DNA from: Dehalococcoidia bacterium
GTDB taxonomy: Bacteria > Chloroflexota > Dehalococcoidia > Lucifugimonadales > JADFKI01
Length of the DNA: 64,000 bases
Reading direction: 5' to 3'
Assembly: GCA_963422525.1 (NCBI GenBank)
Contig: OY730226.1
Location: 515,844 to 579,843, forward strand
Part shown: positions 8,322-45,880 of the stretch, one piece after another
How positions within the stretch are numbered: the stretch's first letter is position 1
Layout: each line of letters starts with the position of its first letter
Notes under the pieces: model-generated
What the model was told of the DNA's origin: nothing
What the model saw: only the letters and a program-made list of their open reading frames with translations
Database searches by the model: none
Translations under genes and position numbers: made by a program

Positions 8322-10070
8322 CTATATTTCCTCTTCGTCCTCTACTTGTTGGGTGTCCGTTGCAAATCCCCAGTTTTGAGCGATATATTCTTGTACTATT
8401 TTTCCGCGCTCATTGATGAATGAATTGAAATCAGCCCTCATTTTCATGGGCTTTTCCATAATCTCTATGCAACGTTTATCAATGAAGAAAGGTTCATATA
8501 ATTGTAGCAGTTCTGAAGTCCACTCATTCTTGACATCAGTGATTTGGTTCGCTGGATCCATCTTGCTCCATTTGCGATTTGTCTCTTTTGTAAGAGGCAT
8601 GACGTTTAGCGCCAAGTTGTGCGAATCGCGATTGGCATCCCAGTTTGGGATGTGCTGTTCGCAAAAAGCTTTCGGAAATATGTGATGGGACTGCGAGGAA
8701 ATAATAGATTTTCCTGTTCCACCGACAATCTCCTTATTTAGCGGGTCTTTCGGTTGTTCCTTACTTATCAAGCACGCTATAAGCTTTCCTATGGCACTGT
8801 TTGGGGTGACGCTGTCCAGAGAGCGAATGCGAACATCCGTCATCCATGGTGGCTCAAAGTTATCGCCCTTTTTTATCCAATTCAACAACTGATCTTTATC
8901 CCGGTGCTGTGTAGCAGGCTGAGATTCGGTGTATCGTTGTTCAAGCACTGTTCCGACGAACCACCGCTCCAATTTCCTCTGCCATTGCGCTTTGTCCGCG
9001 CTTGGTTGATCATATTTCTGCTCAATTTCGGCAAGGGCAATAGCAAGCGGAGCTAGCATGGAATCATATGGCATAAATTGATTGGTTGCGTCCAATCCCA
9101 TCCCAAAACGGCTAGAAAGAAACTCGCCGGCACGCTCCAAATTGGTTATTGCATCATTTTTTAACCTTTTGAAGTTATATTCATTTATAGTCCTGGGAAG
9201 CGTGGTCTTTTTGGGATTCTTGCCATCGAGCAACGCAATAGTTTGCAAGAATATCTCACCAGTAGCCTCTATATTTTGATAGTAATTGGTTAATACCTGG
9301 AACTCATCAAGTTCTTGACGCAAGCGTATTCCTTTTGCAAAAAGGACTGCGACCACGATTTCGACAGGTGTTAACCGTTGCCCTGATGTGTTCAGCGTTT
9401 GGAACACTCTGGTTATTGCCTCAACTGGCATATCAGAATCTAGTACAGTCACGGGTACTATAGGTTCAGAACCAATTTTGAAATATGGCCACACCAATCT
9501 TTCAATGAACTTTACTCTGTCGGGATATTTCCTTAGATATCGCTCTTTCGCGTTCGAAAATTCGAACTCGCTTGCCAGGGATGGTGTCCAAAGCAGGTTT
9601 GAATTAAGAAGATTCTCAGGATTGCTGGATTGTCTACGCCCCTTGATGTACTTATCCTCTTCATCTAGGTCGTCGGCAAATTCTTTCAGGGCTTCTCTGT
9701 TGTCATAGTCAAGATTTTTATCGGATGCCATATTCCACAATGCGCCAAGGTCCAGGAAATAGTGAGACCTACCGGTACCGTAGTAAAGCATCAAGCCCGC
9801 TGTGATACGCTGCTGACCATCTAGTACATACGAATCTATCTCGGAATTTCCCGTATTTACACCCTCAAACAGACGAGGGGACAGGTTGAGTATGTCAGAC
9901 GCTTCAAGGGTAAGAAATCCGCCTATCGGATATTCTTTTCGGACGGAATCGAAAAGTTGAAGCACTTTTGGCCGTGTCCACTTCCAATCCCTCTGAAACT
10001 CAGGGAGTCTGAGTTTACCCAAATATGCGTCATCCACAAGGCTTTTGAACTGTGATTGTTGCGCTTTCAT
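8322..10070 (-). CDS. DUF262 (GmrSD-like) modification-dependent restriction endonuclease candidate
   Basis: LPEFQRDWKW, VLDGQQR, FQTLN motifs plus C-terminal HHIFP...N (HNH-like); lower GC than flanks. Confidence 0.8.
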   Translation of the reverse strand: MKAQQSQFKSLVDDAYLGKLRLPEFQRDWKWTRPKVLQLFDSVRKEYPIGGFLTLEASDILNLSPRLFEGVNTGNSEIDSYVLDGQQRITAGLMLYYGTGRSHYFLDLGALWNMASDKNLDYDNREALKEFADDLDEEDKYIKGRRQSSNPENLLNSNLLWTPSLASEFEFSNAKERYLRKYPDRVKFIERLVWPYFKIGSEPIVPVTVLDSDMPVEAITRVFQTLNTSGQRLTPVEIVVAVLFAKGIRLRQELDEFQVLTNYYQNIEATGEIFLQTIALLDGKNPKKTTLPRTINEYNFKRLKNDAITNLERAGEFLSSRFGMGLDATNQFMPYDSMLAPLAIALAEIEQKYDQPSADKAQWQRKLERWFVGTVLEQRYTESQPATQHRDKDQLLNWIKKGDNFEPPWMTDVRIRSLDSVTPNSAIGKLIACLISKEQPKDPLNKEIVGGTGKSIISSQSHHIFPKAFCEQHIPNWDANRDSHNLALNVMPLTKETNRKWSKMDPANQITDVKNEWTSELLQLYEPFFIDKRCIEIMEKPMKMRADFNSFINERGKIVQEYIAQNWGFATDTQQVEDEEEI

Positions 10071-10807: not shown

Positions 10808-11728
10808 CTACACCACGAACAGCGGCTCCCTCATTGTGATGATGCGGGTTTCGGCGGCGACGGCTTGGCGCAGGAACTTGGGGACGGCGAACATGCCCCG
10901 GTGCGCGATGCCGTCGTAGCTGCGTAGTTCTCCTGCGACGCGCTCGGCGATGCGGCGGTCTATCTCGTCGGCGGGGACGGAGAGCGCGTCGCCGCGCGGC
11001 GCGCCTGTTACGAAGCCCCAGGTCGTGCCGAATGAGGGGATGAATGCTTCGTGTAGATGGGCGGAGGGGAAGACTGCGGCGACGGTGTTCGCTACGGCGG
11101 AGAAGCACTGCTCGTAGAAGGTGGCTCCGGTTGGGCCTGCTTGCGCTACCATGATGCCGCCGGGGTTGAGACGCGCGCGCATTGTGCGGTAGAACTCCTG
11201 CGTGAAGAGCATGTAGGCGGGGCCTGCTTCCAACGGGTCGGGCACGTCTATGATGGCGATATCGAAGCGCTCGTCGGTCGTCTGGATGTATCGAAGCGCG
11301 TCTTCGTGTCGCAGATGCAGGCGCGGGTCTTCGAATGCGCCTTGATGGTGGTTGGGCAGGTACCGTTTGCACATGTCCACCACTAGCTTGTCCAAGTCCA
11401 CCATGACCACGCGCTCTACGGAGTTGTGGCGCAGGGCTTCTCGCGCGGTCGCGCCCTCGCCGCCGCCTGCGATGAACACTGAGCGCGGCGCGGGATGCGC
11501 TATCATCGCCGGCTGCGCGAGCGCCTCGTGGTACACGAACTCGTCAAGCTCGGTGGATTGCGTCTTGTCGTCGAGCACGAGGCTTCTGCCGAAACATTCG
11601 GCGTCGTGGATGCGCACATGCTGATACGGCGAGTCGTCCTCGAAGAGCACCTCGCGGATGCGCTCAAGTTGCATCAGCCCGTCGGTGATTAGCTCATAGT
11701 GCCAGTTGCCTTTGGGGGGAGTGTTCAC
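10808..11728 (-). CDS. speE: Polyamine aminopropyltransferase (spermidine synthase)
   Basis: DEFVYHEAL, GGGEGATAREAL, IIDVPDP motifs; downstream of speD. Confidence 0.93.
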   Translation of the reverse strand: MNTPPKGNWHYELITDGLMQLERIREVLFEDDSPYQHVRIHDAECFGRSLVLDDKTQSTELDEFVYHEALAQPAMIAHPAPRSVFIAGGGEGATAREALRHNSVERVVMVDLDKLVVDMCKRYLPNHHQGAFEDPRLHLRHEDALRYIQTTDERFDIAIIDVPDPLEAGPAYMLFTQEFYRTMRARLNPGGIMVAQAGPTGATFYEQCFSAVANTVAAVFPSAHLHEAFIPSFGTTWGFVTGAPRGDALSVPADEIDRRIAERVAGELRSYDGIAHRGMFAVPKFLRQAVAAETRIITMREPLFVV

Positions 11729-13028: not shown

Positions 13029-15722
13029 TTACTCGGGGCAGAAGCGATGGTAGGAAGTATATTCGCAAGGGGTTTTGCCGGAATCGTTTCGCAGGCTGAG
13101 GTCTGGGTCTCTGTCGAGCAGCACGTCGAGCAGCATATTCAATAGTTCAATAGCATCTTTAGGGAAAAACTCCGAATTCAATTCTTTTACAGATCTGAAA
13201 CCGAACTTTTGGGCGACGAGGTGCAACAGTGTGTTTCCATTCTCGTATCTGGCATTGATGTCCACATCCGTGTGATCCAGCAATGCCTTTATTGTGTAGG
13301 GATGTGGGCCCTCATTGATGGCAAAAAGCAGGGTGTCGATATCGGCGTCGGCGCCGCGTTCCAGCAGTAATTTTACGATCAATGGATTCATTCTTTGTAT
13401 TGCGTCTTGGAGAGGTGTAATTCTCTTCAGTCTTGTAGGGACCGTCGTGGTCGATGTCTCAGTGTCTACGGCTATTGTAGGCGCATAATTCCTGGCTCTT
13501 CTGTCTGCCTCGATATTTACATCCGCGCCGTAGTTCAGCAGCAGTCTTGCCATTGTAGGTTTACCGGAGTTTAACCGTGTCGATATATGTAATAGCGTCG
13601 AATTTTCAATATCGTTTATAGGCGATAGGGCGTGAATATCCGCCCCTCTTTTCAGCAACAACTCAGCGACTGCCAGCCTTTCCTGCTGCACGGCGTCATG
13701 CAAAGGCGTATTGCCGTCTCTCACCCACGCCTTAACGCGAAAAACATCGATGTCAGCGCCGTTATCCAGCAGCGAAGCGGCTATTGCAGGCTCTTCGTTC
13801 GTGGCGGCGGCATAGTGCAGCGGCGTCGCCCCAGACGCAGTCCTGAGGTTGACATCGATGCCTTGGTCCAACAGCAGTTGGATAATTGCGGGGTCTTTGA
13901 CTCTCTTTGCTGCATGGTGCAAGGCGAGTCGGCTTCCATCATGAAGGTAGGCGCCTTCCCCTCGATTCAGCAGGGTGCGTACATCATCTAAGGTCGCATG
14001 CGCCCAGAAACGCCAGGCGCATAGCATGCCGCATCTAGGGTCGGCGTTCCGTAAAGGTTTATGCTCCGGGCACAGGCGGTAATGTGTTGTGGTGTTATAG
14101 ATTGCGCCTGGACTCCACTCCAGATATTCACATATTGATGGTTTAGGGAACTGGTCTCCCCAATTGCCGGTGTCTGCGCCGTAGTCTAACAGCAGTTCGA
14201 TGATGGGCAGATCCATTTGCATAAGCGCTTGCTGCAGGGTGGTTCGATCGGTGGGTATATTGACATCGGCGCCACGCTCTAACAGCAACTTGGTGATTTC
14301 AAAGTTGCCTCCCCATTCCATGGATTGGTCAAGTGGCGGGATGGATGTTTCGCGATCATTGATTTCAGCCCCGTTGTTTAGCAGCAGCTCCGTTACCGCT
14401 GCGCTGTTCAATACCGCAAGGGTTAGAGGGGATTGTCTTCCCAACATAGGATGATCCCGGACATCATTAATTTCTAATCCATGCTTTAATAGCAGTTCCA
14501 CGACCGCCGGGTTTTTGTTATATTCCGCTGCTCGATGCAAAGCCGACATTTCGTTCTCGCCGTATGCGTATGGGTCTGCGCCGCGCTCCAACAGCGCTTC
14601 TAATACGGACGGCTCCGGATTATGCTTTGCCGCTAGAAATAGAGGGGTTTGCCCATCTACGTTTCTCACATCGATGTCTGTGGCGCTTTCAATTAGGAAC
14701 ACAACCGTTTCGGGGGATTGATTTAGCATGGCCGCGTAGTGCAGCGGCAAGCTCTGGTAGGCTTCGTCGCCAACGGTTAGCGTTGGTCTTCCGTCAAAAT
14801 TCAACAGAGCTCTGATCACTGCCACTTCGTTGTACGCTGCGGCGATGTGTAGAGGTGTCATTTCTTGGTAAAAAAAGTTACCTGTGCGCGCGTTGATGTC
14901 TGCGCCTTCATCCAGCAGTAGATTAACCACTGCTGGATTGTTGTTCGCTGCCGCAAGGTGTAGAGGGCTGATATTGATGAAGTACATAGGGTCGGGCTCC
15001 GCGCGAGGGGTGGGGTGCGGAATGGGGTAAGGATTCATATCATCAAACCGCCTATCAAACACTGCTGCCCTGTTCGCCATTATAAGGCGTCGAGGTCTGA
15101 CAGCGATGAAGTGCACAGGGTCGGAATGCATATCATCCACATCCGGGAAGAATGTTACTGCGTTGGATCTTATTTGCGTATTCACATCCGATCCCCCATC
15201 TAGCAACGCTTTTGTTATTGCCGGTTCTGCGTTGTATGCGGCGGCAAGGTGTAAAGGTTCGAATGCATAGTCGTCGAGGGCTTCAATGTCTGCGCCACGT
15301 TCGAGCATCAGCCGTATTACTGATACATCTTTGCTGTACATTGCAGCAAGGTGTAGGGGAGTTTGGCCATAAAGGTTTGTAGATTTGAGATTGGCGCCGC
15401 CACGCACCTCGTGGAGAATCTCTTGAGTGTCTGCATTGCGCCAGAAGTCCTCATCACACAGGTGGCCGCATATGAGCGATATTGCAGTTTGAACAGGCGC
15501 GGGTGTTGTGGTTGGCGATGGGACTACGGTTGGTCTTGGCGCGGCGTTCTGCGCTGCCGTTATTGCTGTAGATGCGTCGGGTACGACGATTGAGGTCGCT
15601 GCAAGTACAGCGATGTCAGGTTCTTGATCCGCAGCTTCGCTGTACGCCTGCACAGCAAAGGAGAGCGCCAACAATATGCTTGGCAGCGCCAGATATTTGA
15701 GTAGGGATGCTAAAGTTTGCAT
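13029..15722 (-). CDS. Secreted ankyrin-repeat protein with two Cys-capped ankyrin modules
   Basis: Signal-like N-terminus, Pro/Thr linker, many TPLHxAA...LLxxGAD repeats. Confidence 0.9.
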   Translation of the reverse strand: MQTLASLLKYLALPSILLALSFAVQAYSEAADQEPDIAVLAATSIVVPDASTAITAAQNAAPRPTVVPSPTTTPAPVQTAISLICGHLCDEDFWRNADTQEILHEVRGGANLKSTNLYGQTPLHLAAMYSKDVSVIRLMLERGADIEALDDYAFEPLHLAAAYNAEPAITKALLDGGSDVNTQIRSNAVTFFPDVDDMHSDPVHFIAVRPRRLIMANRAAVFDRRFDDMNPYPIPHPTPRAEPDPMYFINISPLHLAAANNNPAVVNLLLDEGADINARTGNFFYQEMTPLHIAAAYNEVAVIRALLNFDGRPTLTVGDEAYQSLPLHYAAMLNQSPETVVFLIESATDIDVRNVDGQTPLFLAAKHNPEPSVLEALLERGADPYAYGENEMSALHRAAEYNKNPAVVELLLKHGLEINDVRDHPMLGRQSPLTLAVLNSAAVTELLLNNGAEINDRETSIPPLDQSMEWGGNFEITKLLLERGADVNIPTDRTTLQQALMQMDLPIIELLLDYGADTGNWGDQFPKPSICEYLEWSPGAIYNTTTHYRLCPEHKPLRNADPRCGMLCAWRFWAHATLDDVRTLLNRGEGAYLHDGSRLALHHAAKRVKDPAIIQLLLDQGIDVNLRTASGATPLHYAAATNEEPAIAASLLDNGADIDVFRVKAWVRDGNTPLHDAVQQERLAVAELLLKRGADIHALSPINDIENSTLLHISTRLNSGKPTMARLLLNYGADVNIEADRRARNYAPTIAVDTETSTTTVPTRLKRITPLQDAIQRMNPLIVKLLLERGADADIDTLLFAINEGPHPYTIKALLDHTDVDINARYENGNTLLHLVAQKFGFRSVKELNSEFFPKDAIELLNMLLDVLLDRDPDLSLRNDSGKTPCEYTSYHRFCPE

Positions 15723-32393: not shown

Positions 32394-33115
32394 TCACCAT
32401 AGCGTGGGCTTGGTGAATATGCCCCCGGCATCGGTGATGGCGGAAGGGAACTGGGCTTTGGCGAGCGCGCTTTTGTTGATGGTGCGGTAGAACCATGTTG
32501 CCACATCCGCCAGTTCACGGCTGACTCTGTTGCGCTGATGTAGGTTGATGACGCTCACATCCTTGTGGAACTTCCGCCAGTTCACGGCTGACTCTGTTGC
32601 GCTGATGTGGGTTGATGACGCCCACATCCTTATGGAACTTCATGGAACTTCCGCACGACATAATCAATCGGGAGCGTTAGGTCGGAGTCGTTGGATATGA
32701 CGACCGCTTCATCGAAGTCATCGTCGAAGCAGTCTATCAGCAGCATCGTGGCAAGGTTCACATCGGAGCGCTTCTCTTCTGTCTTCAGTATCCGCACTCT
32801 TTCGGGCGGGTCGGATGGGCTGGAGTAGGTGAGCGGGTATATGGGAGCGGTTGTTGGATGAAAAGAGAAGCGCCCGTAGTGAATGGTCAAATGCGGTATC
32901 GTCTCCAGTGCCCTTAGATAATTATCCTGTCTGTCGGGAGCCTGCGGATCGTGCGAGTAGGATGCTATGCGTGCTGTGAAATACCTGATTCGGTTAATCT
33001 CTCTGTCAGGTAAAATACGACGGCACAGCGCATTGAGATTCAGCCACTTATACGGGGTGCCCCGCAGCGCGCCATAGTAGAGATTGAAGCCGTCAATATA
33101 GACATTTACGCTCAA
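32394..33115 (-). pseudogene. NYN (LabA/DUF88, PIN-like) RNase disrupted by 10-bp and 67-bp tandem duplications
   Basis: VYIDGFNLYY, EEKRSDVNLA, VISNDSDL motifs; duplications at 32632-32651 and 32506-32654; C-terminus ...FTKPTLW* out of frame. Confidence 0.82.
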
Positions 33116-33127
33116 AAGAAAAGTCCC

Positions 33128-33198
33128 ATAAATGCAATGACCACCCCGAAAGGTGGTCTTGCTACCCTGACCACCAGAAGCGGTAGGGGCGATGAACA
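33128..33198 (-). ncRNA. Putative two-hairpin leader RNA upstream of NYN copy 1
   Basis: Hairpin CCCU-ACCGC-UUCUG-GUGGU-C-AGGG, then GACCACCU-UUCG-GGGUGGUC; promoter TTGACA(33228-33233)-17 nt-TAAACT upstream. Confidence 0.55.
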
Positions 33199-33283
33199 TG
33201 TATTAGTTTAACCGCTTTTGCGCTCGGTGTCAATAGCAATTTTGAGGCCTGATACTGTCCCGGATTAGTAGGTAGAAGCATCA

Positions 33284-35319: not shown

Positions 35320-35958
35320 ATGATTACCAATGTCTATGTTGACGGCTTCAATTTGTATTACCGCGCTCTCAGGCGGTTCCCTCAGTACAGATGGCTCGAC
35401 CTAGCCAAATTAAGTCAAGCCCTGCTGCCCTCCCATCAGATAAACCGCATACGATACTTCACCTCCATAGTTGACCAGCGCCCCGATGACCCTCTACAGC
35501 AACGCCGACAGGCTATATATCTTCGCGCACTGCAAACCATACCTAAATTAGAGATTCATTACGGGCAGTTCAAGACTCGCAATGTGTGGCGCCCTCTCGC
35601 CAAACCCGTCTCTGGCTTCGAAGGTTCCGTCCTTGTGAAGAACACCGAAGAAAAGGGCACGGATGTTAATCTGGCGACATATCTCATAATGGACGGGTAT
35701 GACGGCGATTACGAGCAGGCGCTAGTCATCTCCAACGACTCCGATTTGGCGCTGCCGATTAGAATGGCGCGCGACAGGCTTAAGCGGCCGGTGGGAGTTG
35801 TCAACCCTAATGTGAATTTGAGACGCGATTCCGCGCCGGTGGAACTCAAAGAAGCGGCGACATTTCTCAGGCAATTAAGGGCCGCCGCGTTGAAGAACAG
35901 CCAGTTCCCGGACTCGTTAGCAGACGGCGTAGGCGTATTCACAAAGCCTTGGGCTTGA
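35320..35958 (+). CDS. NYN (LabA/DUF88, PIN-like) domain ribonuclease, intact
   Basis: VYVDGFNLYY, EEKGTDVNLA, VISNDSDL, VGVVNP motifs. Confidence 0.9.
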   Translation: MITNVYVDGFNLYYRALRRFPQYRWLDLAKLSQALLPSHQINRIRYFTSIVDQRPDDPLQQRRQAIYLRALQTIPKLEIHYGQFKTRNVWRPLAKPVSGFEGSVLVKNTEEKGTDVNLATYLIMDGYDGDYEQALVISNDSDLALPIRMARDRLKRPVGVVNPNVNLRRDSAPVELKEAATFLRQLRAAALKNSQFPDSLADGVGVFTKPWA

Positions 35959-36112: not shown

Positions 36113-36718
36113 CTAGCCCTTGTCCACACGGATGATTTGGCAGTCTTTCAACATGATGATGCCTATTCCAGTCCCTATTTCTATTTCACCCTGCACAGTC
36201 ACCAGATGATCATATCGTAATGTGGCAAGAAGATTGAGATCCGGATTTTCCATAAAACACCATATTTCGATTTGATAGGATCTATCATCATCATCTTCAA
36301 TGTATAGAATGATTTGTCCCTCATGCACATTACTAATTGGCGCTTGCGCTAGAATCTTTTTGTCTTTGTATTTTTGGTTCGCAGCCACACTATTTTCATC
36401 ATAGAAACTGACAACTTCTAGAAAATCCTCATAAGTCGTTAACTTCTCATAAGCGTCGGATGCGACTGCCGTTGGCTGGGGCATGGGCGTGGGGTATGGC
36501 GTAGGCAGGTTCGCGCTTGCCGGGACAGGGGTCGGCGCGGGCAGGTTCTCCAGCCCGTGGAAGGTTAGGTTGTCCATGGGTACGGTGGCGCTTGCGCCGT
36601 CCGGCGTCCAGACGGTAACGCTCTCTTCGGTAATCTGAACTGCCGTCTTCTGCCCCACAGCGCAGCCTATAAGCAGCGCAAGCGTCATCACGGCTGCTGC
36701 TGCTGCGATGGTTTTCAT
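36113..36718 (-). CDS. Lipoprotein with OB-fold (tRNA_anti-like) C-terminal domain
   Basis: LLIGC lipobox; YDENSVAANQKYKDK...VTVQG...LKDC pattern. Confidence 0.7.
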   Translation of the reverse strand: MKTIAAAAAVMTLALLIGCAVGQKTAVQITEESVTVWTPDGASATVPMDNLTFHGLENLPAPTPVPASANLPTPYPTPMPQPTAVASDAYEKLTTYEDFLEVVSFYDENSVAANQKYKDKKILAQAPISNVHEGQIILYIEDDDDRSYQIEIWCFMENPDLNLLATLRYDHLVTVQGEIEIGTGIGIIMLKDCQIIRVDKG

Positions 36719-36833
36719 AGAGATAGTCTCCTCTTCGTTTTGTTTATGATGCAGCGTTACCATTTGGAGCGGTCGGTGCTGAAGTTAAGTTCACGCACGA
36801 GTTGGAAGGTGTCGTGCGGAGAGGTTCAGAGAA

Positions 36834-38798
36834 TTATTGTGCCAATTTGATTGATCGAACGCCGTTGATGCCGCCAAGGTTGCCAAGCGCCGTAGGCCTC
36901 TGGTCCCATTGAGCAATTTTGTCCGGGCTATAGGCAGGCCATGTCGGGAACTCAAACACACCTACACACAGCGCCCAATGCCTGTTGTTCGTGTAGAAAG
37001 CTTCAGCCAGATCCTCGCGCGTAGCCTTGTCAGGCTCTCCCGCCATATTCAGGTAGGTCTGCGCAGCCCACGGTATCTCCATTCCAACTCCGTATCCTCC
37101 CGCGCTGATGGAACTCATCACGAAGCCGTGCGCCCAGTCATACGGGAAGTTGGAGTGGTTCTCGTCTCCGCAGCCAGTGAACGGCGTCTTGTTCGTGCGC
37201 GCTACTAGACCGGGACGGAATGTCCTGTACTCGGTCTTAATCATGTTAACCTTCACGCCGAGGTTCTGCTGCCACGCCGCGCCGACCGCCTCACCCACAT
37301 GAGAGTTCAGCTCGCCCGTGCCTATCCACATATCCATCTCGAAGCCGTCCGAATAACCCGCCTCGCCCAGAAGACTCTTGCCCTGGACATAGTCGGTGCC
37401 CCAGCTCCAAGCCTCATCGTAGTTGGTGTTGTTGATCGACAGGTACGGCTGATGGTTCACAACGCCCAACCCTGCGATAACATTCTCCAGCAAGTCCTCA
37501 CGCGGGATGCTCCAAGCAAGCGCATTGCGAACTAGCCTTGTAGACTGCATCGAAGCCGTATCTTCGCTGAAATCAGCGCCATCCTCAAACGGATTGCCTA
37601 TGTACGGGTACTCAGATGTGCCTGCGCCCGAAAGGTCCCGCGAAAGCGCCTCACCCGTCAATGCGCCGTGGCTCTCCCAGTAGTTGCCCGAGAAACCGAT
37701 GTTGAACATTGTGTTGTGAGCCGCGCCGCGCTGCGCCTCATAGCCGCCGTCCAGCAAGCTAGGCAGGTGAGCAAGCTCAACTCTGGCTATCTGAGCTTCA
37801 CCCGCCTCCAGCGCCGCCTTGCGAGACTCACCCGCAGGGATGTCCCGCCACTCAACATTCTGAACAAACGGGCCCGCAGTACCCTCGCCTCGCGCATAGT
37901 AGTCCTCGAACGCATGCAGGAAGATGCCTTTCTGCTGCGTCCACTCATCCACTACGAACGCTCCTACTCCCGTGTAGTCGTTCTCCATCCCATCTACGCC
38001 CTTCTCGGCATAGACCTTGCTGCTTACGATGCCGGCGGTCTGCCAGAAGGCGCTGAAGCGGTGCAGCATGCCGCGGCTGTCATAGTTGCGGTAGTGCAGG
38101 CGCACGGTGTAAGGGTCTATCGCTTCCATCTCTTGAATCAGCGGAGCGAAGTCGCTTGCCTGTCCGTGCACACTCTCCGGATTGGTTACGGAGTTTGCGT
38201 CATTGTACGAGAACGCCACATCTTCCGAGGTCATCTCGCCCCAGCCGTTGTGGAACTGCACGCCCTCGCGCAGGTCAAAGTCGCCGAACTCAAGAGACGG
38301 GTCAAGCGTGAACTCGGTGGCAAGCATCGGCTCAATTGTGGGCGAACCGTCCGCTCCCATCTTGGAGTTGAACAAAGTGTCTGTCATGCCCGCCATGTAG
38401 ATGATTTCTGCGCAACCGCCCGCGCTCGCCGAACAAAATCTCGGCAATCCGTTAGGCGCGCCCACAAACGAAGTGGCTATAATCAAATTGCCCGTAGGCT
38501 GTGGCATATCCGAACCGCTAGGCGCAGGCGTTGGCGCAGGAGCCGGTACTGCTGGCGCTGGCGTGGGGTATGGCGTAGGCGTAGGCAGGTTCGCGCTTGT
38601 CGGGACAGGCGTAGGCGCGGGCAGGTTCTCCAGCCCGTGGAAGGTTAGGTTGTCCATGGGTACGGTGGCGCTTGCGCCGTCCGGCGTCCAGACGGTAACG
38701 CTCTCTTCGGTAATCTGAACTGCCGTCTTCTGCCCCGCTGCACAGCCTATAAGCAGCGCAAGCGTCATCACGGCGGCGGCGACTGCGATGGTTTTCAT
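36834..38798 (-). CDS. ABC transporter substrate-binding lipoprotein (family 5, peptide/nickel-like)
   Basis: LLIGC lipobox; PMLAT..LREGVQFHNGWGEMTSEDVAFS, GVGAF, VRNALAWSI motifs; no permease adjacent. Confidence 0.85.
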   Translation of the reverse strand: MKTIAVAAAVMTLALLIGCAAGQKTAVQITEESVTVWTPDGASATVPMDNLTFHGLENLPAPTPVPTSANLPTPTPYPTPAPAVPAPAPTPAPSGSDMPQPTGNLIIATSFVGAPNGLPRFCSASAGGCAEIIYMAGMTDTLFNSKMGADGSPTIEPMLATEFTLDPSLEFGDFDLREGVQFHNGWGEMTSEDVAFSYNDANSVTNPESVHGQASDFAPLIQEMEAIDPYTVRLHYRNYDSRGMLHRFSAFWQTAGIVSSKVYAEKGVDGMENDYTGVGAFVVDEWTQQKGIFLHAFEDYYARGEGTAGPFVQNVEWRDIPAGESRKAALEAGEAQIARVELAHLPSLLDGGYEAQRGAAHNTMFNIGFSGNYWESHGALTGEALSRDLSGAGTSEYPYIGNPFEDGADFSEDTASMQSTRLVRNALAWSIPREDLLENVIAGLGVVNHQPYLSINNTNYDEAWSWGTDYVQGKSLLGEAGYSDGFEMDMWIGTGELNSHVGEAVGAAWQQNLGVKVNMIKTEYRTFRPGLVARTNKTPFTGCGDENHSNFPYDWAHGFVMSSISAGGYGVGMEIPWAAQTYLNMAGEPDKATREDLAEAFYTNNRHWALCVGVFEFPTWPAYSPDKIAQWDQRPTALGNLGGINGVRSIKLAQ

Positions 38799-39051
38799 AG
38801 AGATCGTCTCCTCTTCATTTTTGTTTATAGTGCAGCGTTACCAGTTGGAACGGTCGGTGCTGAAGTTAAGGCAAATAAGACGCAACGTGCTGAAGAACAG
38901 TCAAGTGTGAGAATACTGTTGCAATGTCTAAAACAACATGTTATATTATTTGCAAATTAAAAATTAAATAATATCTACAATACGTGGTTATCCATCGGCC
39001 TCGTGAAAATTGCGTCCACATTCAAGATACAAGATAAGGGAGATGTTTCAA

Positions 39052-40653
39052 ATGACACTTGTTGATCGTCCGAACAGACAGGCATTGATTGACGCGCTGG
39101 ACATATACCGTGATGAGATGCGGTCTTTTATCGTCAGAAACCTGAAGCGCGTGCCCGGTAGAAAGGTTGAAGATTGTATAAAATTCGCTCTTCATGACAC
39201 GCAGTACAACCAGTTTGTGGAGAGCAGATCTGAAGATCGGAGCGTTGAAGCGTCTATAGACATCAATGCCTTTCCCCAGATTGTTAAAACCTATTGGCGC
39301 GATGCGTTTGGCGACAGATTTAAGACAGGCGGCAATGTTCAGGCTGCTATGTATTCGATTATTGAGGTGCGTAATAATGTGTCGCATCCCGGAACCGATG
39401 ATGTTGGACTAAACTATGCCGTGGATTTCTTAAAGCGTATAGCCACATTGCTAACAGAGATTAACCAATCTGACCAAGCTGATGTTGTGAATGCTATTAG
39501 AGTTGGGCTGCTTCCATTCAAGACGCATGCCCACAAGTTCCGGCAAGGCGGGCGCGATGTGTACGCCTTTTCTTTGGATTTAGAAACTCTAGACAAACTT
39601 CTGCCTGACCGAGTGGATGACAAAATGGTCATAGACGCCAACCGGCCTCTAACAGCAAGTCATGCCAAAGACATTCAGATGTATCTGGAAGATCGCTCCG
39701 ACTGGCTGTTAGGTGCGCTGCTACTGGGTGTGCCATCGAGCAATGTGGATTTCCAAACATATACGCCCGACTCTAACGCTGAAAACTGTGTGGGATCGCT
39801 CATCATCGATGCTGATGGAGCCGCTGCTATGAAAATGTTCGACGGGCAGCACCGACGCCGAGCCATTAAGGATGTTATTAATGGCCTTGCGCGCAATACA
39901 AGTAATTCTAATAAGTTGGCGTCTCTGAAAGAAAATTCCATACCCATTATGTTGTATGTGGAGGATGACATTGACGCTTTGCGGCAAATGTTCGCGGATG
40001 CGGCTCAAACTAGGTCTATAGAAGGGAACACAGTAACCCGATTTGACCAGCGAGACGCTTTCAACCTAGCGGCGCTGTGGATTGCGGACTACAGCGACCT
40101 GTTTGTCGGACGCGTAGAGATGGAGCGAACCTCTGTCGCCAGAAGCAGCCACAACATAATTGCTATAAACCAACTGGCGCAGACATTGAAAACTCTGGAG
40201 GTTGGATACTCAGGGCGCATAAGCAAAGACCGAAACGAAGTCTATATGCAGGATTTGGATTCCTTGTACGAGCGATGCTTGACATGGGCGGACGACTTTA
40301 TGCCGTCTGCCAGAGATGAGTATAACGATCTGATGGCTGGCGAAATTGACAACTCCGACATCCCTGGGGAGCGTGTCAAGACGATGGCATACAACGCCAT
40401 CGTAATTCGGATTTTTGCAGCCTGCTACTATAAGTGGACTAACGGCGGCTACAAATTGCCCGCCTTATCTGACTGGTCTCGCTTGGCTGACTTTCTGCGA
40501 AACGCCTCACTGCGCCCCGGAATCAAGACAGGCTCTCTGTTGATAGACGCAGGCGTCGTTCCCCCAGGCGGCACATCCCCAATTGCACAACGACAAACCG
40601 TAGTTCAAGCGATTGATTACATCATAGAGCAGGCGCGAGAAATTTTGGCATAA
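39052..40653 (+). CDS. Swt1-like HEPN domain fused to a DndB/DGQHR domain
   Basis: N-terminal helical domain with R-x4-H (RNNVSH); FRQGGR, ANRPL...H, FDGQHRR, RQMFAD motifs. Confidence 0.8.
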   Translation: MTLVDRPNRQALIDALDIYRDEMRSFIVRNLKRVPGRKVEDCIKFALHDTQYNQFVESRSEDRSVEASIDINAFPQIVKTYWRDAFGDRFKTGGNVQAAMYSIIEVRNNVSHPGTDDVGLNYAVDFLKRIATLLTEINQSDQADVVNAIRVGLLPFKTHAHKFRQGGRDVYAFSLDLETLDKLLPDRVDDKMVIDANRPLTASHAKDIQMYLEDRSDWLLGALLLGVPSSNVDFQTYTPDSNAENCVGSLIIDADGAAAMKMFDGQHRRRAIKDVINGLARNTSNSNKLASLKENSIPIMLYVEDDIDALRQMFADAAQTRSIEGNTVTRFDQRDAFNLAALWIADYSDLFVGRVEMERTSVARSSHNIIAINQLAQTLKTLEVGYSGRISKDRNEVYMQDLDSLYERCLTWADDFMPSARDEYNDLMAGEIDNSDIPGERVKTMAYNAIVIRIFAACYYKWTNGGYKLPALSDWSRLADFLRNASLRPGIKTGSLLIDAGVVPPGGTSPIAQRQTVVQAIDYIIEQAREILA

Positions 40654-40695
40654 ACAAATGTCTATACCATGGATAAAGCGTTCTGGAGGTTTGAA

Positions 40696-41859
40696 ATGTC
40701 GCCGGTAATATCTACTTCTACTAATCAGTACAGCCTGAGTGCGCCAGCGCATCGCTTCCGACAAGGTGGGCGCGATGCCTATTACTTTACACTTACATTG
40801 GAGACGCTTGATGGTCTTTTGCCTCAGAGGGTAGAGGACGACGTGGTGCGAGAGGCTAACCGCCGGCTTACGCCCAGCCATGCAAAAAACATTCAGAAAT
40901 ACTTGGATGAAAAAGATGATTGGTTGTTGGGAGCGATGATGCTAGGGATTGCTCATGATGCGGTGGATTTCGAACCTTATCCTATTGAAGATGGTGAAGC
41001 CGACAGTCTGAACTTTGGTGAATTGCGGATACGCACCAACCGCATCAACACTATGCGGATATTCGATGGGCAGCACCGGCGTCGAGCTGTACAAGAGGTT
41101 CTTGCAGCCTTGGCGTATGACGAGTGCCGCTCTGACAAACTAGCGGTGCTACAAAAATCCTCTATGACTATAATTCTCTATGCAGAAGATAACATCAAAA
41201 CTCTGCGCCAGATGTTCGTGGACGCGTCCAAGACCAAGCGAATTGAGGGTAGTACAGTTGCGCGATTTGATAGACGCGACGCATTTAATTTGACAGCGGT
41301 TCGGCTTGCCAACGATAGTCGCATGCTTAAAGGGCGAGTTGAGATGGAGCGTTCGTCAGTGTCCGCATCCAGCCAGAATCTTTTGGCAATCAATCAGCTG
41401 GCTTCAATTTTGAAGACGCTGGAAGTCGGAAATAATAGACGAGTCAGCCGTGAACTTAACGATACCCATATGCAGAAGCTAGACGACTTATATGAGCGCT
41501 GTCGCATCTGGTGCGACGAGTTTATTCCTGCCGTCAGAGAGGAGTACAACGAATTACTCAATGGCGATATAAAGAATTCGGAAATACCGCAGCTGCGCGG
41601 CAAAACTTTTGCTTATAACGTCACATTCATTCGAGTGCTTGCCGGCTGTTATCGTATGTGGCTAATGGAATATAGACCTTGGGAAGCTCTTGCCGATTTC
41701 ATTCATAAAGCATCAATAAACCGCGGCAGCAGTTACGGTTTGCTAGTAGATGCCGGGCTGGTTACCCTGGATGGCAAAAATCTCTTGTCGCGTCGGCAGG
41801 AAGTGGCAAAGTCGATTGAGTATATTGTCAGCGCATCAAAAGCAACTGTTGTCGATTAG
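40696..41859 (+). CDS. DndB/DGQHR-domain protein, paralog of the upstream C-terminal domain
   Basis: FRQGGR, ANRRL..SHAK, FDGQHRR, RQMFVD; GGAGG RBS. Confidence 0.85.
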   Translation: MSPVISTSTNQYSLSAPAHRFRQGGRDAYYFTLTLETLDGLLPQRVEDDVVREANRRLTPSHAKNIQKYLDEKDDWLLGAMMLGIAHDAVDFEPYPIEDGEADSLNFGELRIRTNRINTMRIFDGQHRRRAVQEVLAALAYDECRSDKLAVLQKSSMTIILYAEDNIKTLRQMFVDASKTKRIEGSTVARFDRRDAFNLTAVRLANDSRMLKGRVEMERSSVSASSQNLLAINQLASILKTLEVGNNRRVSRELNDTHMQKLDDLYERCRIWCDEFIPAVREEYNELLNGDIKNSEIPQLRGKTFAYNVTFIRVLAGCYRMWLMEYRPWEALADFIHKASINRGSSYGLLVDAGLVTLDGKNLLSRRQEVAKSIEYIVSASKATVVD

Positions 41860-41920
41860 CATGATCGTATGAGCGCAGGCATTAGCCTATCTGCAGTATT
41901 GCTTTGTATCTGCCTCCCGC

Positions 41921-43549
41921 TCACCCGAACCGCGCCAGCAGCTCCGCCACGCCGCCGTTGATGACGCGCATGAACGGCCATGGGAATAGCCCCACCAGCA
42001 GTATGAACGCAGTCAGCGTTGCTGCGGCGAATATCTCGACGCGCGTGGCGTCCATCGTCGCTGACGGTTCGGGATGAGTGGCGGCGTGTTGAGCGACGGC
42101 GATAGGCGCGCCGGCGCGATCAGACTGCGGCGTCTCGCCATCTATCGCCGTCTCCTGGCTGTTGACCGCCTCATCGGTCGGCGCGCCGGCAGGGCCGAAG
42201 AATACTTTTGCCAGCAGGCGCAGGATATACACGGCGGTTATCGCCGCTCCGATGACGCCCAGCGCCCCCAGCAGCGGGTATGTCTGGAATAGTCCTAGGA
42301 ATACCAGCAGCTCGGCGACGAAGCCGCTTAGGCCAGGCAACCCCAGCGAGGTTAGCCCTGCGATGGTGAAGAACACGGCGGTTGTGCCCATCCGCTTGGC
42401 GAGGCCTTCTAGCGCCATGATGTCGCGGGTGTGCGTGCGATCATACACGACGCCCACGACCGCGAAGAACAGCGCCGTCATTACGCCGTGTGAGAACATC
42501 TGCAAGACAGCGCCGCCCAATCCCAGTGGGTGCAGCGTGGCGATGCCCATCACCACATACCCCATATGGCTCACGCTGGAGTATCCCACGACATACTTTA
42601 GGTCGGTCTGCCCCATAGCGGAGATTGCGCCGTATATGACATTCACCGCGCCGAGCAGGATGAGCGCAGGCATCCAGAATTCGGCCCCTTCCGGCAGTAT
42701 GAACATCCCGATGCGGATGATGCCGAACGCCCCTAGTTTCATCAGCACGCCTGCGTGCGCCATGCTGACGGCGGTGGGCGCCGCCACATGGCCGTCCGGC
42801 GACCAGGTGTGAAACGGCCACAGCCCAGCCAATATGCCGAAGCCGACTGCTAGGAATGGGAAGAAGACCTTCTGGAAGGTGGGCGAATACTCTGCTTCGG
42901 CGAGCAGCCGCATGTCGAATGCGCCCAGCCCAGCCTCCACGAAGATCGCCATCAGCGCAACCCATATGAGGACACTGCCCGCCACGAGGTACAGCGTCAA
43001 CTTCATTGCGCTGTACTCCTTCGTGCGGCTGAATTTCGGGAATCTGCTGCTGCTGCCCCAGACGCCGATGAGCAGGTACATCGGCAGGACCGAAAGCTCG
43101 TAGAAGAAGAAGAAGAAGAAGAGGTCGTAGGAAGCGAACACGCCGAATACGCCCGCCAGCAGCAGGAAGTAGAGGATGAAGAAGTCCTTGTTCCACGCCT
43201 TGATAGACCACGAAACGAGAACTCCCGTGAACATGACGATGCCCGTGAGCAAAATCATGGGCGCTGCGATGCCGTCCACGCCGAGCGTCAGCGATATGCC
43301 GATGTCGCCGAACTGCCACGGGCCTGGAATGCTCAGCCAGCGCCATGAGGCGGCGAAACGCTCGCCGTCGCCATCGAAGTAGTAGCGCGCGAACACATAG
43401 AACGACAGCAGCGTCACAACCAGCGCAAACACCGTCGCCGTCCGGCGAATCGCTGCATCATAGGCGCTCGGCGTCGCCATGATGATCGCGGCGCCGACTA
43501 TCGGCAGCGCAATGATTGCGAGGAGAATGTGCTGGTCAAAGAATTGCAT
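41921..43549 (-). CDS. nuoM: NADH-quinone oxidoreductase subunit M
   Basis: LGVDGI, FFFYEL, PFHTWSPDGHVAAP, YSSVSHMG motifs. Confidence 0.93.
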   Translation of the reverse strand: MQFFDQHILLAIIALPIVGAAIIMATPSAYDAAIRRTATVFALVVTLLSFYVFARYYFDGDGERFAASWRWLSIPGPWQFGDIGISLTLGVDGIAAPMILLTGIVMFTGVLVSWSIKAWNKDFFILYFLLLAGVFGVFASYDLFFFFFFYELSVLPMYLLIGVWGSSSRFPKFSRTKEYSAMKLTLYLVAGSVLIWVALMAIFVEAGLGAFDMRLLAEAEYSPTFQKVFFPFLAVGFGILAGLWPFHTWSPDGHVAAPTAVSMAHAGVLMKLGAFGIIRIGMFILPEGAEFWMPALILLGAVNVIYGAISAMGQTDLKYVVGYSSVSHMGYVVMGIATLHPLGLGGAVLQMFSHGVMTALFFAVVGVVYDRTHTRDIMALEGLAKRMGTTAVFFTIAGLTSLGLPGLSGFVAELLVFLGLFQTYPLLGALGVIGAAITAVYILRLLAKVFFGPAGAPTDEAVNSQETAIDGETPQSDRAGAPIAVAQHAATHPEPSATMDATRVEIFAAATLTAFILLVGLFPWPFMRVINGGVAELLARFG

Positions 43550-43558
43550 GCGGCTATT

Positions 43559-45448
43559 TTACAGCATAACCCACCACACTAGCGCCAGCGCTACGAGTCC
43601 TACCGCCATCGCCATGCCGTAGTTGTGCAGTCGCCCCGTCTGCATCAGCCGCAGTCGGAATGCGGCGATCCGAACCGAGAGCGCCATGCCGTCAACGCCA
43701 AGGTCGTTCACTACCGCGCGGTCGAACAGCGCGACAAAGCGGCTGAACGCGAGCGCGACGCGGTCTATCAGCCACTGGTACAAGTCGTCCATGTAGTACT
43801 TGTTGAGCAGGATGCGGTGGATGGGCGCGAATCGCCTTGCTATGCGCTCATGCGGCGTATCGTCTGTGTCGAAGGCGGTCGTCTCCCCTGTGCCCGTCGG
43901 TTTCCTGTTATACAGGTACCAGCCCGCCGCTATGCCGCCGGCTGCGAGTGCGAGCGATACGACACTCAGCCAGGGGATGATGTGGAAGCCGCCGTATCCG
44001 GTCAGCCAGTTGGCAAAGCCATGGTAGCTGCCCCAGCCGATTGCGAGCGCGCCTAGCGTCACCGACAAGAACGCTAGCAGCAGCAAGGGAGCGGTCATCA
44101 GCGTCGGCGACTCGTGCGAGCGCTTGGCGTCGGGATGCGCCGTGCCGAAGAATGTGCGATACACGATGCGCGCCATGTACAAGGCGCTGAGCGCCACGCC
44201 CACAAGCGTGAACGCGAGGAACGCCGGGCTGCGATGCTCCATCACCGCTATCAGCACTTCGTCCTTGCTGAAGAAGCCGCTCAGTGGAGCGATGCCCGCA
44301 AGCGACAGCGCGCCTACCACGAATGTCAGCGCTGTCAGCGGCATAGCGCGCCGCAAGCCGCCCATCCGCCGCATGTCGGTCTCTTCATCCAAGCCGTGCA
44401 TCACGCTGCCCGCGCCTAGGAATAGCAGCGCCTTGGATACGCCGTGCGCAACGAGATGGAAGATGGCGGCGGCGAGTCCGAACGCTCCCAGCGACAGCAT
44501 CATCAACCCGAGGTGGCTTATCGTCGAGTACGCCAGCGCGCGCTTGATGTCGGTCATCACGAGCGCGAGGGCGCCTGCGTATATGAATGTGAACAGCCCG
44601 ATGACTGCGACGACGAGCATCACGACGGGCGCAAGCTCGAACAGCGGCAGCATACGCGCTACCAGATAGACGCCCGCAGCGACCATCGTCGCGGCGTGTA
44701 TCAGTGCGCTGACCGGCGTCGGTCCCTCCATCGCGTCGGGCAGCCACACATGGAAGGGGAACTGCGCCGATTTGCCCATAGCGCCCATGAACATCAGCAG
44801 CGCCGACGCCGTAAGCGTACCCTGCCCGATGTCGCCCGCCTGCGCTGCCGCGATGATGTCTCCGATGTCGAATGTGCCGGTAGCGCGGAACAGCAGGATG
44901 ATGCCTATCAGCAAGCCCACATCGCCGATGCGCGTCGTGATGAACGCTTTCTTCGCCGCTTCAGTCGCCGAGCGCCGCTCCCACCAGTGCCCTATCAGCA
45001 GGTACGACCCGAGCCCGACAAGCTCCCAAGCGATGTACAGAAATAACAGGTTGTCGGCGAGAACCAGCGCCAGCATCGCTGCGCCGAACAGCGAATGCAC
45101 GGCGAAGTACCAGCCGAAGCGAGCGTCGCCGCGCATGTATTCCAGCGAATACACCTGCACCAGCAGCGCCACGAAGGTAACCAGCCCCAGCATCACTACC
45201 GCGAGGCGGTCAACGAATACGCCCCAAGCGATGGCGGTATCGCCCACGCGCAGCCATTCTACGCTGTATGCGCCATATGCCGCGCCGCTCCCCATCAGGT
45301 CCGCGAGAACGAAACAGAACAGCGCGAACCCGCCTGCCATCGCCGCGATGGACACATACGCCCCGCGCGCAGGCAGCCAACGTCCGCCGAACGCGACTAT
45401 GACGAATGCGGCGGCGCTAAGCGCTGGTATGAGGTATGCGAGGTGCAA
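43559..45448 (-). CDS. nuoL: NADH-quinone oxidoreductase subunit L
   Basis: WELVGLGSYLLIG, GKSAQFPFHVWLPDAMEGPTPVSALIHAATMV motifs. Confidence 0.95.
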   Translation of the reverse strand: MHLAYLIPALSAAAFVIVAFGGRWLPARGAYVSIAAMAGGFALFCFVLADLMGSGAAYGAYSVEWLRVGDTAIAWGVFVDRLAVVMLGLVTFVALLVQVYSLEYMRGDARFGWYFAVHSLFGAAMLALVLADNLLFLYIAWELVGLGSYLLIGHWWERRSATEAAKKAFITTRIGDVGLLIGIILLFRATGTFDIGDIIAAAQAGDIGQGTLTASALLMFMGAMGKSAQFPFHVWLPDAMEGPTPVSALIHAATMVAAGVYLVARMLPLFELAPVVMLVVAVIGLFTFIYAGALALVMTDIKRALAYSTISHLGLMMLSLGAFGLAAAIFHLVAHGVSKALLFLGAGSVMHGLDEETDMRRMGGLRRAMPLTALTFVVGALSLAGIAPLSGFFSKDEVLIAVMEHRSPAFLAFTLVGVALSALYMARIVYRTFFGTAHPDAKRSHESPTLMTAPLLLLAFLSVTLGALAIGWGSYHGFANWLTGYGGFHIIPWLSVVSLALAAGGIAAGWYLYNRKPTGTGETTAFDTDDTPHERIARRFAPIHRILLNKYYMDDLYQWLIDRVALAFSRFVALFDRAVVNDLGVDGMALSVRIAAFRLRLMQTGRLHNYGMAMAVGLVALALVWWVML

Positions 45449-45475
45449 TCGGTTGCCTATCTAGCCGCGGCAAGG

Positions 45476-45880
45476 CTATTGGTATTGGCTCAATTCTTTC
45501 ATCATACGCGGAAGAGCCTTTTCTACGCGCCAATGGTCGTAATCCCAGCATTCGTAGCAATCCTCTAATGCTCCACACTCAAGGGTCATGAGATTGAACA
45601 TAACCATCTTGGCGTCTATATCCGGCTCATCCCAATCCTTGAACATTTCGGAACGGTTTTCGTCGAAAAAGCGCTCGCATATATTCTTTGGGTACGCTTC
45701 GTTCAACTCAGCGCGAGTTACATAGCGTCCCCCTACGGAAACAGTGTTCTGATCGTCCTCTGCATGGATGTGTCCGTTCAATATGATGTCCACACCGTCT
45801 ATTTTGGCTTCGTAAAGCATATGTATCCTCACCGATAACGGAGTCTTACGGTATGAATTGTCAATTAACCTAGTCGCCAT
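45476..45880 (-). CDS. Hypothetical protein inserted between nuoK and nuoL
   Basis: 134-aa lower-GC ORF starting right after the nuoK stop. Confidence 0.65.
   Translation of the reverse strand: MATRLIDNSYRKTPLSVRIHMLYEAKIDGVDIILNGHIHAEDDQNTVSVGGRYVTRAELNEAYPKNICERFFDENRSEMFKDWDEPDIDAKMVMFNLMTLECGALEDCYECWDYDHWRVEKALPRMMKELSQYQ

Follow-up and report, generated by a model that had tools for sequence, protein, structure and literature searches.

What is the role of a gene pair in which a predicted HEPN RNase is fused to a DndB domain and followed by a second, stand-alone copy of that domain? The question is raised by a 64,000-nucleotide stretch of the genome of a Dehalococcoidia bacterium (GenBank assembly GCA_963422525.1, contig OY730226.1, positions 515,844 to 579,843; hereafter, the window), in which two open reading frames (ORFs) occupy the plus strand at 39010–40653 (547 aa from a TTG) and 40669–41859 (396 aa from an ATG). 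The starts are more likely an ATG at 39052 with AAGGGAG upstream, which gives a HEPN-DndB fusion of 533 aa (39052–40653; gene 1, or A), and an ATG at 40696 with GGAGG upstream, which gives a DndB/DGQHR paralog of 387 aa (40696–41859; gene 2, or B). A first-pass annotation of the window had proposed the pair as a candidate defense or toxin-antitoxin (TA) system. We conclude that A and B make up a self-contained, horizontally mobile module whose most likely role, at roughly an even chance, is that of an anti-phage or abortive-infection system. Our best reading is a stand-alone system in which an A-B switch that senses DNA or nucleoside triphosphates (NTPs) would control the RNase, in the manner of related DGQ(Q/H)R proteins.

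Results

Conservation of the A+B pair

Homologs of gene 1 are numerous (735 in database searches at E ≤ 1e-3), and the best 120 of them align at 58 to 71% identity with 88 to 100% query coverage, all but three at 98% or more; both Pfam domains of gene 1 are present in 110 of these 120. Gene 2 has 885 homologs at the same threshold, and its profile, searched against 1.84 billion entries, matched 770 cluster representatives at E ≤ 1e-3, of which 97 also passed E ≤ 1e-30. We compared 28 loci, 25 from species-representative genomes and 3 from metagenomes (the JGI scan gave 3 only), which carry four phylum-level labels: Dehalococcoidia/Chloroflexota, Latescibacterota, Nitrospinota, and Caldilineaceae. 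This neighborhood survey confirmed that the pair exists beyond the window, with A and B adjacent in 22 of the 28 loci. Fourteen encode a fused HEPN-A followed by B, seven an A that lacks HEPN, and one an A that has been split. In the split locus (L014:5820-9116, Dehalococcoidia), an opposite-strand DDE_Tnp_1_4 transposase parts the HEPN domain (a 211-aa ORF) from the DndB domain of A, and this looks like an insertion sequence (IS) within the fusion. The remaining six loci comprise five with a single DndB-type gene and one broken into fragments.

Clustering of neighbors in the 25 genome loci identified a sole recurrent family beyond the pair, a UvrD-like superfamily 1 (SF1) helicase protein of 755 to 808 aa (c1) that is present in 6 of the 28 loci (L017:10840-13134, L014:10345-12711, L023:10879-13200, L021:5441-7867, L026:5568-7835, and L048:1053-3320). 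In c1, the N-terminal ~200 aa match no family, a Walker A motif lies around residue 215, and the C-terminal half carries UvrD-like helicase motifs. Its start overlaps the stop of B in three of its loci, and c1 could be the third member of a longer form of the module. The window's own genome (one contig, 2.71 Mb, 97.7% complete) has no c1 relative, a generic 19.9-bit match being the only one found, and a 761-aa neighbor in L049 was rejected as a c1 homolog at 21% identity. Across loci, the A+B pair is the only conserved unit.

The history of the pair was examined in a quick maximum-likelihood tree of 46 rows, from which the A of L009 (masked bases), L025, L029, and L048-L050 were omitted and whose root is unreliable because the outgroup branch is very long. 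The B proteins form a clade (Shimodaira-Hasegawa-like approximate likelihood ratio test [SH-aLRT] support of 99), A and B of the HEPN-less pairs fall into matching subclades (96 and 98), and the HEPN-bearing and HEPN-less subclades of A mirror those of B. Both A and B of the window are nearest to one Latescibacterota locus, at 75 to 77% identity. This pattern indicates that the duplication is old, that A and B evolve together, and that the module crosses phylum boundaries.

A promoter had been proposed ahead of the genes in the form TTGCAA-17-TATATT, with a TG-extended −10, on the plus strand at 38919–38947, ~100 nt upstream of the gene 1 start. On the window alone this claim would not stand, since a single-sequence match of this sort is not above chance (6 promoter-like matches in the region versus 4.2 ± 2.2 expected). 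It was rescued by comparison, which found the site and its −35/−10 block aligned upstream of gene 1 in 13 other loci as well. TTGACA is exact in 7 of these 14 sequences and has one or two mismatches in 4 more, the window among them, and the 14 upstream regions have nothing else in common except a ribosome-binding site. Because the block is kept across loci, the module brings its own promoter. Gene 2 and the DGQHR part of gene 1 are paralogs that go back to an ancient duplication, and the two genes are inherited together with that promoter.

Domain architecture of A and B

The first-pass annotation had described gene 1 as a Swt1-like HEPN domain with an intact R-x4-H motif (RNNVSH) fused to a DGQHR domain, and gene 2 as a collinear paralog of the DGQHR part only; both descriptions held up. 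Pfam HEPN_Swt1 (PF18731) matches residues 29 to 152 of the 547-aa form with 28.7 bits (cutoff, 27.5), and the HEPN of the IS-separated homolog in L014 scores 41.5 bits. Pfam, the AlphaFold2 (AF2) model, and structural matches together place a Swt1/Abi2-type domain at residues 1 to 152 (39052–39507, plus strand). Within it, alignment of homologs locates the catalytic motif at R107 to H112 of the 533-aa form (39370–39387, plus strand), and R107, N108, H112, and P113 are identical in all 43 homologs aligned. The AF2 model of gene 1 is confident in the HEPN part only, with a predicted local distance difference test score (pLDDT) of 76 to 95 over residues 11 to 150 and an overall mean of 69.3. Among 48,161 chains, its two best structural matches were AbiF (8vz6_B; Z 8.3, 145 aligned, root mean square deviation [rmsd] 4.0) and the C-terminal domain of yeast Swt1 (4pqz_A; Z 7.8, 122 aligned, rmsd 3.3), with 2hsb, 3o10, 1wwp, Cas13, and AbiA ranking lower; these matches name the same clade as the Pfam model, though the Z values alone are indecisive. 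Sequence and model thus identify the N-terminal domain of gene 1 as a Swt1/Abi2-clade HEPN with an intact catalytic motif, a predicted RNase. A search of the Protein Data Bank (PDB) sequences with the gene 1 profile gave 0 matches at E ≤ 1, and Foldseek against the PDB found nothing at E ≤ 1e-3 with either of the two models; in its output, ParB (7bm8_A) reached probabilities of only 0.85 and 0.51.

In 6 of the 11 proteins of the genus that were examined, a DUF499 ATPase is preceded by a HEPN domain of the same type, 26 to 48% identical to the gene 1 HEPN. The window's own genome encodes one such protein of 1220 aa (L038:225-3887; G000:C1:1045724-1049386), whose HEPN scores 22.2 bits, which is below the cutoff, and is 32% identical to that of gene 1; the congener versions are 1118 to 1134 aa long.

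Both proteins exceed the cutoffs for Pfam DndB (PF14072, 29.1 bits; 135.8 for gene 1 and 141.9 for gene 2) and for the NCBIfam DGQHR domain (TIGR03187, 58.85 bits; 92.6 and 96.1). The DndB matches cover model positions 2 to 226 of 338 across both proteins (3 to 217 in gene 1). In gene 1, Pfam and NCBIfam place a ParB-fold and C-terminal helical domain at residues 160 to 533 (39529–40650, plus strand), with the DGQHR motif at D264 to R268 (39841–39855, plus strand; codon positions checked); F263 and the following DGQHRRRA (264 to 271) are invariant in 43 of 43 homologs. Gene 2, which is free of HEPN, is collinear with residues 157 to 529 of gene 1 at 52% identity. Alignment places its DGQHR motif at D124 to R128 (41065–41079, plus strand), F123 and DGQHRRRA (124 to 131) being invariant in 41 of 41 homologs, and D, G, Q, H, and R are unchanged in a 60-sequence alignment extending to 20% identity. 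Both genes thus keep the nucleotide-binding motif and are apparently competent to bind nucleotide.

A ParB fold is also indicated by the structure predicted for gene 2 (pLDDT 93.8; predicted template modeling score 0.89). Its N-domain matches PadC (Z 7.0), pNOB8 ParB-N (6.5), SspE (6jiv_A, 5.7), and sulfiredoxin (5.1), and further matches are KorB (Z 4.7), BrxU (7p9k_A; Z 4.4, 251 aligned), and DndI (9jfl_A; Z 3.8, 263 aligned); the C-terminal helical half has no structural match above Z 4. In a Pfam scan at E ≤ 1, DndB and HEPN_Swt1 were the only families found, and DUF262 and DUF1524/HNH were not listed in either protein. C-terminal DNA-reader domains, Mrr_N or HARE-HTH, occur in 2 of 22 extended or longer family members scanned. 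The PHROGs collection gave only phrog_5732, of unknown function (20.7 and 30.4 bits), and matches in the ESM Atlas were confined to DndB-type clusters.

Predicted association of A with B

Complex prediction with the DndB part of A (residues 153 to 533) and B gave an interface score (ipSAE) of 0.70 (0.68, 0.70, and 0.71 in three runs) versus 0.00 for the best of 3 controls. Of 80 solved complexes 58 attain this mark, compared with 2 of 110 mismatched pairs, and close paralogs pass it too. The runs share at least 50% of contacts, with partner pLDDT of 76 to 77. The predicted interface is pseudo-symmetric and lies between the ParB-like N-domains (A 159 to 320 with B 17 to 177), and the model supports association of A and B, or dimerization, through these domains.

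An interface of this kind would also suit a TA-like pair in which A is toxic as an A-A dimer, B is a decoy at the same ParB interface, and loss or titration of B frees A. The two genes are adjacent, co-oriented, and 15 to 42 nt apart, with the longer, toxin-domain gene first, and TA genes adjoin some of the loci. Competition would be geometrically plausible, since the modeled interface uses a domain common to both proteins, and the closest structural match of the HEPN is a HEPN toxin such as AbiF. However, 7 of the 28 loci keep A and B although A lacks HEPN and there is nothing to neutralize, so B presumably does more than mask an RNase. In addition, gene 2 retains every conserved motif of the family, the invariant DGQHRRRA included, unlike a degenerate decoy. 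DNA-reader domains on some family members also speak against a TA role, as does the lack upstream of gene 1, and in the 14 upstream regions, of a repeat or RNA family of the AbiF-like antitoxin sort: Rfam gave only Yfr17 (21.1 bits versus a gathering score of 50), and no tandem repeats were present except a two-copy 18-nt repeat at 38857–38904. Of the two roles that had been offered for gene 2, decoy or co-subunit, the first is therefore weakened and the second fits better. We regard a TA-like pair as unlikely and prefer a defense module in which B is a working part of the switch.

Relation to DNA-modification systems

A further possibility is that A and B are accessory or regulatory proteins of a DNA-modification pathway and act in trans, by analogy with DndB, a regulator of dnd, and DpdB, which drives the insertion of preQ0. 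Both proteins are members of Pfam DndB, and the genome contains a candidate partner near dnaA. There, a third, more canonical DndB (L051:9547-12090; G000:C1:493546-496089) lies ~60 kb from the pair and ~20 kb before the window, in a three-gene minus-strand operon after dnaA that encodes an SspD-like PP-loop protein of 298 aa (PADLOC SspD, 48.6 bits), a GIY-YIG nuclease of 141 aa, and the DndB of 419 aa, which is fuller-length (Pfam model positions 2 to 331). Since the genome has no DndC or DndD, this operon may be a separate small DndB-centered module. Upstream of dnaA, a tandem pair of Uma2-family paralogs encodes putative restriction endonucleases of 290 and 311 aa (L051:5857-7883).

Against a trans-acting role, genes 1 and 2 fall far below the cutoffs of the DndB equivalog (TIGR03233, 328 bits; scores of 60.5 and 62.5) and of the DpdB equivalog (NF041060, 300 bits; 29.6 and 24.6), and a HEPN RNase has no obvious part in a modification regulator. 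DndC and DndD have no match in the own genome. The statement that the window holds no dndCDE, dpd, or pbe genes proved correct, in that its 62 other ORFs of at least 100 aa gave no Dnd, Dpd, Ssp, or Pbe PADLOC match at E ≤ 1e-5. Genes 1 and 2 themselves matched only the generic DndB and DpdB models of PADLOC at E ≤ 1, and no already described system was recognized in this way. No modification gene recurs beside the pair in the 28 loci, and none of dndC, dndD, and dndE was found among the 146 Pfam-scanned neighbors (158 neighbors lie within three genes of the core; 7 of the other 12 had been annotated already, as 6 c1 helicases and a transposase, leaving 5 outside the scan). An SspD-like gene lies ~2.4 kb from the pair in G018. 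Such a gene is nevertheless found as often with the pair as without it (4 of 5 genomes each) and is missing from pair-bearing G310, and a functional link between the two was therefore dropped. These observations support independence of the A+B pair from dnd genes, and a trans-acting role in modification is a less likely explanation to which we assign a low probability. A stand-alone module remains our preferred reading.

Patchy distribution and mobility

The module is horizontally mobile and accessory. Within the genus, 4 of 22 genomes carry the HEPN-bearing pair; 0 of 19 genomes from other genera of the same order do, and an even sample of 401 genomes of the phylum yielded 3 with the pair. 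Congeners carry it at different sites. As the first-pass annotation had noted, the two genes form a low-GC unit, with a GC fraction of 0.44 to 0.51 over 39000–41999 between flanks of 0.58 to 0.59 (37000–38499) and 0.59 to 0.65 (42000–45499). Similarity to congeners without the pair stops exactly at the nuoM stop codon, and between nuoM and a conserved gene at 35320–35958 different species have different genes. A clean insertion into an empty site was considered and rejected, as the left flank is not syntenic and the place is a variable spot only; no direct repeats that could be insertion scars flank the low-GC islet. Of the 28 loci, 5 have transposases no more than three genes away from the core, and 7 have genes of TA, Abi, AAA_15/21 ATPase, or nuclease type within that distance (families AbiJ_NTD4, TumE, HigB+HTH, NTP_transf_2, PDDEXK_4, and HNH). 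Scanning IMG/VR with the gene 2 alignment gave 15 pattern matches, 0 of them confirmed, and a tblastn search of a plasmid collection gave 272 records, all DndB/DGQHR at less than 60% identity (23 to 26% in the 25 listed), none of which covers HEPN. Elsewhere in the own genome, a decayed second fragment of the A/B family (L004; G000:C1:1232896-1233304), with TAA and TGA stops inside, is 58 to 60% identical to gene 1 residues 230 to 367.

A ParB-like pair outside defense, concerned with transcriptional control or with the segregation or silencing of a mobile element and having HEPN as an RNA-binding or regulatory domain, is likewise less likely and in our view highly improbable: ParB-fold proteins are often orphans on mobile elements with varied NTP specificities (PMC12704722) and canonical DndB is reported as a transcriptional repressor (PMC10853773), but the invariant Rx4H argues for catalysis rather than binding alone, genomic context differs between loci, and the pair has no parA, plasmid, or phage context, with 0 IMG/VR relatives and only distant plasmid DndB proteins (~25% identity).

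Other features of the window

Directly upstream of the promoter-like site, the two copies of the 18-nt direct repeat (GTGCTGAAG..., 38857–38904) are 30 nt apart and could be a regulator-binding site or a chance occurrence. Terminator-like sites were not above chance (4 found versus 3.7 ± 2.2 expected). To the left of the pair, minus-strand genes encode proteins of 216 aa (36113–36763) and 654 aa (36834–38798) whose ~65 N-terminal residues, a lipoprotein-like signal and proline-rich linker, are nearly identical, pointing to a recent partial duplication. The PADLOC candidate model HEC-09 matches small proteins at 32630–33199 (121 bits) and 35320–35958 (131 bits), the latter being the conserved border of the variable spot adjoining nuoM. 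Further PADLOC matches in the left part of the window (755–1318, 2671–3432, 8322–10070, 10808–11728, and 13029–15722) comprise three mad2-like ORFs (47 to 88 bits), a 582-aa PDC-M55C/HEC-05-like protein, and an 897-aa PDC-M72A/ankyrin-like protein, and may be generic domain matches.

Discussion

In the stand-alone system that we favor, the A-B complex might act as an NTP-driven switch that reads foreign or modified DNA, on the model of SspE, DndI, and GmrSD/BrxU, whose DGQ(Q/H)R domains link the recognition of DNA and the hydrolysis of NTPs to a nuclease. A HEPN active site is built from two HEPN domains. Because an A-B complex holds one, a single heterodimer should be inactive and firing should need two A subunits, which could meet in an A2B2 complex, for example, or when they gather on target DNA. 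Once active, the RNase would cleave RNA of the cell, the phage, or both, and halt growth of the infected cell. In the HEPN-less variants, the adjacent SF1 helicase-domain protein or another factor might take the place of the effector.

A more specific proposal, which we put forward only tentatively, is that A and B form an obligate heteromeric ParB-fold NTP switch that senses or loads on invading, possibly modified, DNA and whose assembly pairs two HEPN domains. Effectors (HEPN or the SF1 helicase protein) and readers (Mrr_N or HARE-HTH) would be swappable in this proposal, and the HEPN-DUF499 proteins and the members with Mrr_N or HARE-HTH domains fit such a modular sensor-plus-effector design. 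If true, it would describe a heteromeric ParB-fold switch of a kind not yet described for the fold and a DNA-sensing, RNA-targeting abortive-infection system.

Several observations weigh against our interpretation of the pair. The HEPN_Swt1 match in the window copy clears the Pfam cutoff by 1.2 bits only, and for helical bundles Z values of 7 to 8 are common and those below ~13 are not decisive. The complex model does not separate A-B from A-A or B-B, because the partners are 52% identical paralogs. Furthermore, the neighbors of the pair in the window are an ABC substrate-binding protein gene and nuoM, with no defense island, and most neighbors across the 28 loci are housekeeping genes. DndE had no match in the own genome, in a search whose control also matched nowhere, and the third DndB and SspD-like gene nearby could point to some link between the pair and a modification pathway. 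Finally, the sensing of nucleotide pools or of DNA, modified or not, is assigned to A-B purely by analogy.

The interest of the module lies in its place among DGQHR/DUF262 ParB-fold NTPases, which are emerging as the sensing switches of SspE, DndI, GmrSD/BrxU, Menshen, and Dazbog. In the accounts of them available to us, the characterized switches described so far are single proteins or are paired with an unrelated effector. What is distinctive here is a conserved pair of paralogous sensors with an RNase effector on one, of which natural variants are RNase-less or have helicase or DNA-reader domains. Should A and B form a heteromer, they would show how a ParB-type switch can be given asymmetry and made to control RNA cleavage. 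At ~3 kb with its own promoter, the module is small and should be easy to test, and it would add a defense candidate from the poorly studied Chloroflexota, Latescibacterota, and Nitrospinota.

The fusion of HEPN to ParB is not itself new. Table 1 of a 2013 HEPN catalogue includes a Swt1-like HEPN fused to ParB (Saro_3948; PMC3710099), and HEPN fused to DndB is mentioned in PMC3632139. In the text available, the 2013 catalogue gives the domain architecture only and mentions no paralog partner, module, or test, and a 2024 reappraisal of Dnd treats DndB inside dnd neighborhoods only (PMC10853773). The supplementary tables of these three papers aside, we found no account or test of a module of HEPN-DndB and a DndB paralog in the literature. 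A 2025 study reports that a DndB-like protein binds ATP and GTP (PMC12704722).

Among known systems, SspE and DndI are described as working by "recognize-hydrolyze-activate" mechanisms, in which recognition of a DNA mark leads to NTP hydrolysis and to a conformational change that licenses the nuclease (PMC13251355, PMC11662687). The phosphorothioate-sensing effectors SspE and DndI and the type IV restriction enzymes GmrSD and BrxU resemble the pair in having a ParB/Srx-fold DGQ(Q/H)R NTPase domain, then a helical domain, coupled to a nuclease. Their effector is a C-terminal DUF1524/HNH DNase, whereas that of the pair is a predicted RNase at the N terminus. The sensor of the pair is, moreover, split over two paralogous genes of Pfam family DndB, with DUF262 and DUF1524 not listed, and, unlike SspE and DndI, the pair occurs in a genome without the phosphorothioate modification genes DndC and DndD. 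Canonical DndB and DpdB are of the same Pfam family as the pair and correspond to the sole PADLOC defense models matched; the pair differs in its partial model match, its failure with both equivalogs, the absence of dndC/dndD neighbors, its tandem duplication, and the HEPN on one copy.

AbiF/AbiD and the HEPN-DUF499 proteins (the Ava_2192 type of Anantharaman et al. 2013) have a HEPN of the same clade as gene 1 by Pfam and structure, and in the genus and own genome the HEPN-DUF499 proteins (1118 to 1220 aa) reach 26 to 48% identity over it. AbiF works with an RNA antitoxin, and upstream of the pair no RNA or repeat of that sort was found. Dazbog, Menshen, and PD-T4-2 are small operons in which an essential ParB-like DGxQR protein is accompanied by a separate effector (PMC10952713, PMC12065111). 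Like the pair, these DUF262-containing systems without DUF1524 are compact, but the second gene of the pair is a paralog of the first and not an unrelated effector, and PADLOC gave only DndB/DpdB at E ≤ 1. The PADLOC 2.0 library presumably includes models for all three.

The ParB CTPase clamps (ParB, Noc, KorB, and PadC) have the same fold as the pair. ParB proteins undergo NTP-dependent N-engagement through their N-terminal domains, and the N-terminal NTP-binding domains likewise form the contact predicted between A and B. The surroundings of the pair showed no sign of parA or parS. Known ParB clamps are homodimers with a helix-turn-helix that reads parS-like sites, whereas the pair would combine two different subunits, with a predicted RNase domain on one.

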